From assembly GCF_032062105.1 (NCBI RefSeq), contig NW_026920785.1:1-64000 (forward strand): 64,000 nt of DNA, in the 5' to 3' direction. Of the stretch, positions 23,531-25,815 are shown in pieces (position 1 is the first letter of the stretch; every line of letters begins with the position of its first letter). Both the position numbers and the translations under genes were made by a program. The notes below the pieces were generated by a model, which did no database searches, was not told the DNA's origin, and saw only the letters and a list, made by a program, of their open reading frames with translations. This stretch comes from Saccostrea cucullata (taxonomy: Eukaryota).

Positions 23531-23863
23531 ATGACTAGTTTGATCTCCTCTAGTCATTTTGGGGTGTTCTTCTCTTTGATTGTTTGGAGAAGGTATGTTT
23601 TATTTTCGTTGTAAGCGAAATTGTTAATGACAACATTTATCTATCTAAACAAATGCTTTTCTAAAATTTATTTATTTAAATAGCATTTATTTAAAAAAAT
23701 TAAATATCGAATGTCGAGTTGTTTACCTATTTGTCTACGTAATCACTTCACCAGTTTGTTTTCTACTGTACTGACAATAAAGTGGTTATTCTACTGCCTT
23801 TGTAATTTTCACTTCAAATTACTTAATATGATTGTATATTGTATATTGTTTAACGTCCCTCTT

Positions 23864-23894
<31 letters not shown>

Positions 23895-24115
23895 GATGCC
23901 GGTGAAGGGCTTCAAATTTAGACCTATACTCGGCACTCAGGGCCATTGAGCAGTGAGGGTTCTTTATCGTGCCAACGCCTACCATGATACGGGACCTATG
24001 TTTTTAAGGTCATATCGGAAATACCCCGACTTTCACTTCTAACATGTCTAATGCTGAGGGCTTGGCGAAGGAACAGTCACTACCAATGTTTACGTCTTAG
24101 GTATGATTCGAGAAT

Positions 24116-24147
<32 letters not shown>

Positions 24148-25815
24148 GTGTATGAACATAGTGACTACAGTCACGTAGTGGCAATTGGATTTGATCACTT
24201 TGTGTTGGCTTTCCGATGGCCGGTGACGTTTTGTGAAAATAATGCGGTGAGTAAAATGTTATATCAAGTATTATGTCTACTCATTCAAATAATCTAAACT
24301 CAATGATATTAGAGTAAAAATTAATTTTATGTTATGTTCATGTTCAGTGTGCAAAATTACCACCCGATTTTTGGACCATCCATGGGCTTTGGTAAGTGAT
24401 TATTATTTTTCGTAATTATTATTTAAATACCCGTAATTATCACAGATTCAAATAATAATTATAAAATTAAATGTTTTTAGTCGGTCTGCATTAATCATTA
24501 AGGTAAAAACGCTTTCAGAATTCAGTCACAAACTATTTCAAATAATTTTTTTCAGGCCTTCGAAATTTAATGGGAACCGAGTAGCCTATTGTTCAAACAT
24601 TACATTTAATGAAAATAATATTCCACAGGTATGTACATATTTAAATTGGTTTCAAATAAAAAAGAAATACTAATTTTGCTGTAAAAATGGAGTAATTTCA
24701 AATTAAGAAAAAAAATCCACATCGAAAAGATAATCATCTTTATTTTCTTTCAAACGTACGATTTCCATTTTATTTTACTGGATTTTATAAACATTGATCT
24801 CATTTTGCTTTCAGAAAACTCTAGAACCTATGAATAAGATATACCCAAATCTCTATGACACACAAAGCAACGTAAATTTTTGGTAGATGTTCATGCATAT
24901 TTTTGCAGACGAACTGAGAAATGTCTTAAGTTTTTTTATTAATCAGACGGATATTATATATCATTTTAAGGTCACAGCAATGGCGGAAGCATGGCACATG
25001 CGCTAATGTTACAGGAACAAGGAACGTATCAGAATACTTCACAAAAGTTATCAACCTGGCCAGCATGTACAATATTGACCAGTAAGATGAATCGTTTTTT
25101 TCAGTTTTATTTTTATTCTACTGAATAAATAAAATTAAAAATATATATTAATATTTGTAATAGATGCATATTTGATATTTCAGAATTCTCACAGACTATA
25201 ATATAACGAAAGGAAATACTTTTAAAGTAGGTACATTGAAAAGGGTATCTATAGTGTTAAAATTTTTACTCTTATTAACTATAAAAATTTTTTAATCTAA
25301 TAGAAAACTCTGACCTTAATACATAAATCTCTTATTTATTTTAGATAAAAGTTATAGAAGACGGGATAAAATTTAAAACAAACCACCTACCTTCCATACA
25401 AACTACGGCAGGGCAGAAGGTAACACAAACAATATTAAAATCAATTCACTTAATATACGTATTTTAAATATCCACTTTACATGCTGTAAAATTACACATG
25501 TATAATACTTAATATTATATATATCAGAGTGATAAGATGCTCTTCCTAGTTAGACCCTCTAAGTACCATAATTATGCACCTATCTCATAGTAGCCATGCT
25601 GGTTATTTGAAATCCGATTATGTTTCAATACAACGTTCAACCAAATTGATTGTAGAAAGAAAAAGTCACCATGTACCCGCGGTGTTTTATACCCACGACA
25701 GACTCAGGTGAAAGAGACGAGTGCACATTACAGGTCATCAGAAGTCTGGGCAACATCCCTGTTCTCTTTTGTTTCCTTTCTCTCCATTTTAAATGGAATC
25801 ATTGGACAACTCTGA
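23531..25815 (+). CDS. RNASET2: Ribonuclease T2 family protein, 9 exons, ~257 aa, with signal peptide and hydrophobic C-terminal (GPI-like) tail
   Basis: Exons 23531-23592, 24171(or 24162)-24246, 24348-24391, 24556-24628, 24815-24882, 24971-25081, 25184-25226, 25345-25419, 25594-25815, all GT-AG and phase-compatible (774 nt). Motifs FDHFVLAFRWPVTFC, CAS I WTIHGLWP, CAS II FWSQQWRKHGTC, LFEIRLC...IDC. The symbol is family-level only; orthology not tested. Confidence 0.93.
23829..24110 (-). mobile_element. tRNA-derived SINE family copy (RNase T2 intron 1)
   Basis: Shares GATTGTATATTGTTTAACGTCCCT...GGAGACGTCACC...CGGTGAAGGGCT...TACTCGGCACT with copies at 33580-33850 and 36381-36646. Degraded relatives near 7990-8160, 26300-26600 and 29790-30050. 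Confidence 0.7.

Follow-up and report, generated by a model that had tools for sequence, protein, structure and literature searches.

The RNase T2 gene at 23531-25815 (+) in a 64-kb stretch of Saccostrea cucullata DNA (the window, by which we mean this whole stretch at its full length) encodes a protein that retains both catalytic histidines of the family, replaces the accessory His-Glu pair of the second catalytic motif by Gln-Gln, and ends in a hydrophobic tail whose character is conserved across oyster relatives. We favor the reading, to which we give a probability of about 0.55, that the product is a glycosylated RNase T2 of low activity, held at the cell surface by a GPI anchor and acting there on single-stranded RNA. 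The interest lies less in the single gene, which is ordinary as an annotation, than in a pattern predicted across the family.

Gene structure, transcripts and annotation

The gene consists of nine coding exons separated by introns that are all GT..AG, and the joined exons (783 nt) form a single open frame of 260 aa. The original prediction of a complete gene was correct in this respect, and the gene itself is far beyond chance. The features are as follows.

23485-23530 (+): untranslated stretch ahead of the start codon in the first coding exon, joined to an upstream non-coding exon ending at about 23238; ATG is absent from 23485-23530
23531-23592 (+): coding exon 1, start codon and hydrophobic core of the probable signal peptide; covered by reads
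24162-24246 (+): coding exon 2, with the rest of the probable signal peptide (the alignment suggests cleavage after Ala28), the first strand and Cys45; joint 24245-24347
24348-24391 (+): coding exon 3, which carries CAS I and its catalytic residue His61 (24381-24383); joints in reads
24556-24628 (+): coding exon 4, Cys76 and sequon N78; joints in reads
24815-24882 (+): coding exon 5, running to the FW that opens CAS II; joints in reads
24971-25081 (+): coding exon 6, CAS II with Gln113 (24975), Gln114 (24978), Lys117 (24987) and His118 (24990); Cys121; sequons N123 and N129
25184-25226 (+): coding exon 7, sequon N154; joints in reads
25345-25419 (+): coding exon 8; joints in reads
25594-25815 (+): coding exon 9, end of the RNase fold, linker, candidate GPI sites Ser230 (25720) and Ser235 (25735), stop
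25750-25812 (+): hydrophobic tail, residues 240-260, within coding exon 9

Because the exons are short (14-74 codons), the gene is missed by the ORF track, and it had been called hidden for this reason; as a protein it is not hidden, since a database search with the last exon as query returned an identical 260-aa "ribonuclease Oy-like" of S. cucullata (NCBI RefSeq/UniRef), along with a partial protein of S. echinata.

Reads of four RNA runs were mapped on 21000-27100, and reads of four on 25680-26160. Among the joints listed are those of seven of the eight coding introns (introns 2-8), several with more than 100 reads, and a single contig depth value of 659.8 recurs across exons 1, 2, and 3. 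Spliced reads were found in three studies. A joint at 23236 -> 23482 with GT..AG ends (cut +2), carried by 32 reads of run X21 and 5 reads of run X22, points to a non-coding 5' exon, so that nine is the right number of coding exons but at least one further non-coding exon precedes them. Because the reads are mostly 90-95% alike to the window (2501 of 3532 in X21), they show a diverged orthologous copy in other individuals and not the exact window allele, which differs from all mapped reads. The RNA-seq check proposed for the nine exons was thus favorable as to the joints of introns 2-8 and the coverage of exon 1, but on reads from this diverged copy.

Read depth extends through the hydrophobic stretch to ~25792 in the mapping on 25680-26160, and reads farther on diverge but stay colinear. 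The tail is therefore transcribed, with a stop in the reads at the same position or three codons earlier, and the possibility that transcripts end before the tail, named beforehand as grounds for giving up the prediction, can be set aside. Every read has Gln for Glu237 and Arg for Trp239, matching S. echinata, and reads of several individuals carry Glu or Arg within the last seven residues, at loose read ends. A high-copy repeat in intron 1 (23838-24067) attracts very deep RNA coverage from other loci, and a pile at 26712-26960 is similar to it.

T2 fold and the altered active site

On profile matches and a predicted structure, the window protein was confirmed as an RNase T2 with the T2 fold. 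It matches PF00445 over positions 1-188 of 188 (E 3.2e-36; 125.6 bits against a cut-off of 26); when single exons were searched, one of six matched Pfam (exon 6, PF00445, E 2e-6). All 16 sequence matches in the PDB are T2 RNases, as are Foldseek ranks 1-17 for the AlphaFold model (67-row alignment, pLDDT 87), the best being the SF11 S-RNase (E 2e-16), with TM scores by target up to 0.88. The ESM Atlas search with the whole protein gave T2 clusters only, with scores under 0.9. Cysteines C45, C50, C76, C121, C197, and C207 are at least 90% conserved among 67 homologs and are predicted to form disulfides, and the five N-glycan sequons claimed earlier (N78, N123, N129, N154, and N199) are all present.

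The catalytic histidines lie exactly where they had been placed, His61 in IHGLWP of CAS I (codon from 24381) and His118 in KHGTC of CAS II (codon from 24990), and CAS II is altered as claimed, reading FWSQQWRKHGTC. The catalytic site of human RNase T2 is composed of His65, His113, Glu114, Lys117, and His118 (PMC3458558); in our alignment the equivalents of His65, Lys117, and His118 are kept, whereas those of His113 and Glu114 are Gln113 and Gln114, i.e., the accessory His104/Glu105 pair (RNase Rh numbering) is Gln-Gln. The canonical type, represented by human RNASET2 (PDB 3T0O) and "RNase Oy" and in this genome by C18808/C1439, C18747, and C11682, shares with the window protein the fold, the CAS I/II histidines, the lysine, the core cysteines, and, as predicted from sequence, N-glycans and a probable secretory entry; the window protein differs in having Gln-Gln for His-Glu, an extra linker and hydrophobic tail, and a place in a separate oyster clade.

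Changes in CAS II of molluscan T2 enzymes are already published: molluscs have multiple T2 genes with substitutions at the His104 equivalent (PMC4136927), and in the fish RNase Dre1 clade and S-RNases this residue is Glu, Asp, Gln, or Asn, with reduced but not lost activity expected (PMC2720953). Lineage-specific duplication followed by His104 loss and predicted reduced activity is common to fish RNase Dre1/Dre2, Nasonia Nvi2-7, and molluscan and flatworm paralogs, in which Glu, Asp, Gln, Asn, or Tyr stands at this position (PMC2720953; PMC4136927). The window protein differs from these altered duplicates in that it also loses Glu105, and the available text on them is silent about a membrane anchor (no hit to "membrane" in PMC2720953 or to "transmembrane" in PMC4136927). 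The best fold matches, plant S-RNases and trichomaglin (PDB 1IOO, 1IQQ, 1SGL), likewise have a basic pI and a non-canonical CAS II (DKEW in S3-RNase, GRQW in the relative P0108, QQY in trichomaglin), but they are soluble plant proteins with no tail and 25-27% identity, and the similarity is convergent or a general family likeness. Trichomaglin, which was deposited as an S-like ribonuclease, has QQYEKHGTC, but its sequence was derived from an electron-density map, in which Glu is not easily told from Gln.

RNase Rh is severely weakened when its Glu105 is mutated. The double loss of His104 and Glu105 may thus lower activity much more than the single change described in papers, and by comparison with these enzymes the activity of the window protein is probably reduced. 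The original prediction had taken it as established that substitutions at the CAS II His/Glu positions alter both activity and pH optimum; the former agrees with the lower specific activity on His104 loss, but no pH shift is linked to it in what these sources give (PMC2720953; PMC4136927). Activity at non-acidic pH, proposed on the same basis, finds no backing there, and a literature search found nothing on Glu-to-Gln and pH in the text available from PMC2720953, PMC2892141, PMC10452627, PMC7399046, and PMC5598434. A pH shift of the window enzyme is unsupported.

Both catalytic histidines are kept in every full-length row of alignment A3 that covers them, which is hard to explain without catalysis, and the window protein retains Lys117. 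We therefore regard it as unlikely that the protein is membrane-anchored but essentially non-catalytic, its RNase fold being used at the surface to bind RNA, to agglutinate, or to signal, even though two of the five annotated active-site residues are replaced, the precursor has a pI of 9.3, and T2 proteins are known to have roles that do not depend on catalysis (PMC3458558). The relatives of Magallana and other oysters go further in this direction: the tail-bearing P0003, P0005-P0008, P0010, P0011, and P0257 have Val or Met for the CAS II lysine (KVHGSC, RMHGSC), with the two histidines left, which suggests that these sister proteins may be drifting toward little catalysis. S-RNases without His104, on the other hand, need their low activity (PMC2720953).

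The C-terminal tail and membrane attachment

The C-terminus is as originally quoted: the last 18 residues are without charge, nothing follows the hydrophobic stretch, and there is no other transmembrane helix. The hydrophobic core is of ~11 residues (243-253; mean hydropathy 2.4), and the AlphaFold model shows a disordered linker followed by a lone low-confidence helix at 240-259. At the other end of the precursor the hydrophobic core of the putative signal peptide is weak (11-residue mean 1.8) and aligns with the signal-like starts of relatives. Candidate attachment sites are S230-A-H, with 30 residues after it, and S235-S-E, with 25 after it, the latter with Gln in place of Glu in every read and also in S. 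echinata. Both fit at omega and omega+1, but omega+2 is His or Glu, which is atypical. Small residues are usual at omega+2 of GPI sites.

Tails were scored by a home-made rule (best 15-residue Kyte-Doolittle mean of 1.75 or higher, no more than 10 residues from the C-terminus). Because 57 of 568 random stop-ended frames of at least 40 aa from the AT-rich window (~10%) also pass this rule, a single hydrophobic tail is not significant, and an argument from conservation is needed. In 12 of the 13 tails compared, 3-8 of the last 26 residues are identical to the window protein (16 of 26 in S. echinata), yet despite this low identity the mean hydropathy stays at 1.3-2.4 across relatives and the length is kept. 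Most of the relatives' tails (Saccostrea, Magallana, and other transcriptomes) have N-G-H/Q or S-G-H 20-30 residues before the end, and the N-G-H/Q site is in register with S235-S-E/Q of the window protein. In the quick tree, the 19-row clade has 16 full-length rows, 12 of them with a GPI-like tail, one with a transmembrane helix and cytosolic tail, and three with none. A tail conserved in character in this way fits a GPI signal, and attachment would follow from it. An ESM Atlas feature search with the tail gave no usable match.

Three relatives (P0190, P0019, and P0028, the last from Crassostrea virginica) end in a transmembrane helix followed by a basic cytosolic tail with Tyr-based motifs and are candidates for type I membrane RNase T2 enzymes. 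The swapping of GPI-like and transmembrane ends in these proteins points to membrane tethering as a function that may have been kept.

The family default is a secreted or lysosomal/vacuolar enzyme (PMC4136927), and the window protein could likewise be shed or work in an acidic compartment as an ordinary RNase T2 does, its tail being a sorting signal or pro-peptide, or GPI serving for transit only. Five sequons, a marginal tail with sub-optimal omega+2, and close paralogs without any tail (the C19277 pair and C13511:51768) agree with this. It accounts poorly, however, for tails that diverge in sequence but keep their hydrophobicity, have a small-residue site in register and lack any cytosolic portion, a layout that matches the plan of GPI precursors (PMC6726743), or for the true transmembrane helix of some relatives, and we think it improbable. 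Even a GPI-anchored enzyme could act in endosomes or lysosomes.

A tail that stays uncleaved, either as an amphipathic membrane helix like that of pestivirus Erns or as a tail anchor without a cytosolic part, is very improbable. Erns, also a T2-fold RNase, is membrane-associated via its C-terminus, and its anchor is an uncleaved amphipathic helix. In the window protein serines do line up along a single side of the helix modelled at 240-259, and the hydrophobic moment of 0.26 is among the highest of the 15 tails measured; the moments range over 0.07-0.27, however, none of the tails has the basic polar face that such an anchor should show (0-2 charges in the last 18 residues), strong amphipathicity is not conserved across relatives, and the viral Erns is only a distant fold match (E 0.013; 10% identity).

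If the protein is a GPI-anchored surface RNase, as we favor, its N-terminal peptide would take it into the ER, it would be N-glycosylated and disulfide-bonded, and the last 25-30 residues would be removed at Ser235, in register with the relatives' N-G-H/Q, or at Ser230, and replaced by GPI, which would attach the enzyme to the outer membrane face. His61 and His118 would carry out acid-base transesterification, assisted by Lys117 if the family mechanism applies, and loss of the His104/Glu105 equivalents would lower turnover without abolishing it, so that single-stranded RNA would be cut at the membrane at a reduced rate. The role is the least certain step: the enzyme might trim or capture extracellular RNA on the surface of epithelia or haemocytes, as a scavenger or in innate defence, while soluble T2 enzymes, also present in the genome, do the housekeeping. 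An antiviral role is unsupported and no more than a guess.

Paralogs, wider distribution and neighbourhood

At least 14 places in the genome are matched by the CAS II exon, some of which may be alleles. Four loci are of the His-Glu type (C18747, C18808, C1439, and C11682), and the canonical C18808 has no hydrophobic tail. The other ten, the window gene included, form a divergent group. Four of these (C13511:82127, C12581, C23665, and C6438) are Tyr-Gln with GPI-like tails, and N-G-(H/Q/E) followed by ~24 residues with a hydrophobic end was found at four loci besides the window gene. C13511:51768 is also Tyr-Gln, and its likely last exon has no tail. The two C19277 loci keep Glu and have no tail, one of them (C19277:44475) with a stop in its last exon; the last exon of C4309 was looked for and not found. 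C5006 (L020, G000:C5006:600-3900) is a degenerate copy, 84% alike to the window gene, without coding exon 1 and exons 7-9; it has a (TA)n run at the deletion and a Gly-to-Asp change in CAS II (KHDTC), and it is still annotated, as an 81-aa protein (P0032). Such broken copies in the genome, and a window allele unlike all mapped reads, might suggest that the window copy too is a decaying duplicate without function, but this is almost certainly not so, given its nine-exon open frame with all splice sites intact, spliced reads from three studies, and the Gln-Gln pair and tail common to it and S. echinata at 72% identity.

In both trees the oyster clade is separate from the canonical His-Glu type. 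The careful tree joins the window protein with S. echinata (100/97), then with O. edulis and C6438 (98/87), and then with the tail-less C19277 (95/89), so that it is nested in a 5-row oyster clade (starred; 95/89), apart from C18808; the deeper branches are unresolved. His-Glu is retained in P0258, an S. echinata protein related to the tail-less C19277 genes, and therefore the changes arose within the oyster expansion.

For the wider family 207 proteins were considered, of which 3 (fragments or isoforms) and 18 (truncated or multi-domain) were dropped. Among the 186 kept, a set biased toward relatives of the query, 36 have GPI-like tails (21 of them with Glu105), 7 have transmembrane tails, and 143 have none; 13 are without both Glu105 and tail. 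Because 36 of 186 compares with a control rate of 10%, isolated GPI-like cases are not individually secure. Groups of related proteins are more secure: the tail rule is passed by all three cephalopod proteins, by the Steinernema protein, and by five of seven tick or tick-like proteins, the other two falling below the bar. P0056, P0118, P0260, P0264, P0273, and P0123, which come from Argonauta, Octopus, ticks, and Steinernema, are canonical His-Glu T2 RNases that end in GPI-like tails; like the window protein they have the T2 domain, a small-residue site, a spacer, and a terminal hydrophobic stretch, but they keep His-Glu and are not joined to the oyster clade with support. On a quick tree of the 186 proteins the anchored state changes at least 15 times and Glu105 12 times.

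No coupling of the anchor with Glu105 loss was detected: anchors are enriched in raw counts (17 of 30 non-Glu against 26 of 156 Glu proteins), but well-supported branches give only four independent pairs (sign test, p 1), and the test is without power. We do not claim a single origin of all molluscan anchored T2 enzymes, which has support of 79 in the quick tree and no resolution in the careful one.

The rarity first attributed to the gene was overstated, since it is annotated, its CAS II change has published precedent among S-RNases and in T2 enzymes of fish and molluscs, and many other T2 RNases combine a GPI-like tail with a normal active site. A search covering listed papers and the openings of their abstracts, with most subscription journals, older enzymology, and secretome supplements outside it, found no paper on GPI-anchored T2 RNases or on the oyster clade, and no ribonuclease appears in the available text or the 7 supplements of the experimental GPI proteome of Brugia malayi (PMC6742230). 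Descriptions of T2 RNases otherwise present them as soluble, either secreted or lysosomal. Should the tail prove to be a GPI signal, invertebrates, which are without the vertebrate RNase A family, would have an outward-facing membrane-bound RNase, and this would bear on the fate of environmental and viral RNA in filter feeders and on the degradation of delivered RNA in molluscs and ticks. A broader proposal, which we put forward tentatively and think rather doubtful, is that GPI-anchored RNase T2 enzymes are an unrecognised class of ecto-ribonucleases, gained or lost many times in eukaryotes, and that oysters expanded a fast-changing, catalytically damped surface family that would sample or degrade extracellular RNA (e.g., viral or microbial) from filtered water as part of innate immunity. 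The oyster family provides natural pairs (anchored and soluble, His-Glu and x-Gln) for testing the roles of the accessory residues and the anchor.

Within the 64 kb of the window no tandem T2 copy was found, and no functional link between the RNase T2 gene and a neighbour. A multi-exon gene at 28218-35023 (-), 2.4 kb downstream and convergent with it, encodes a Roc GTPase, COR-A/COR-B, and a DZIP3-like HEPN domain (E 1.8e-15, with the R-x4-H motif), and from its domains is a possible second RNase-bearing immune-type gene. An exon at 9143-9439 (-) encodes a C-type lectin domain (PF00059, E 1.2e-11), and a fragmented LINE-type retrotransposon, with endonuclease and reverse transcriptase pieces in shifting frames, lies at 3705-7779 (+).
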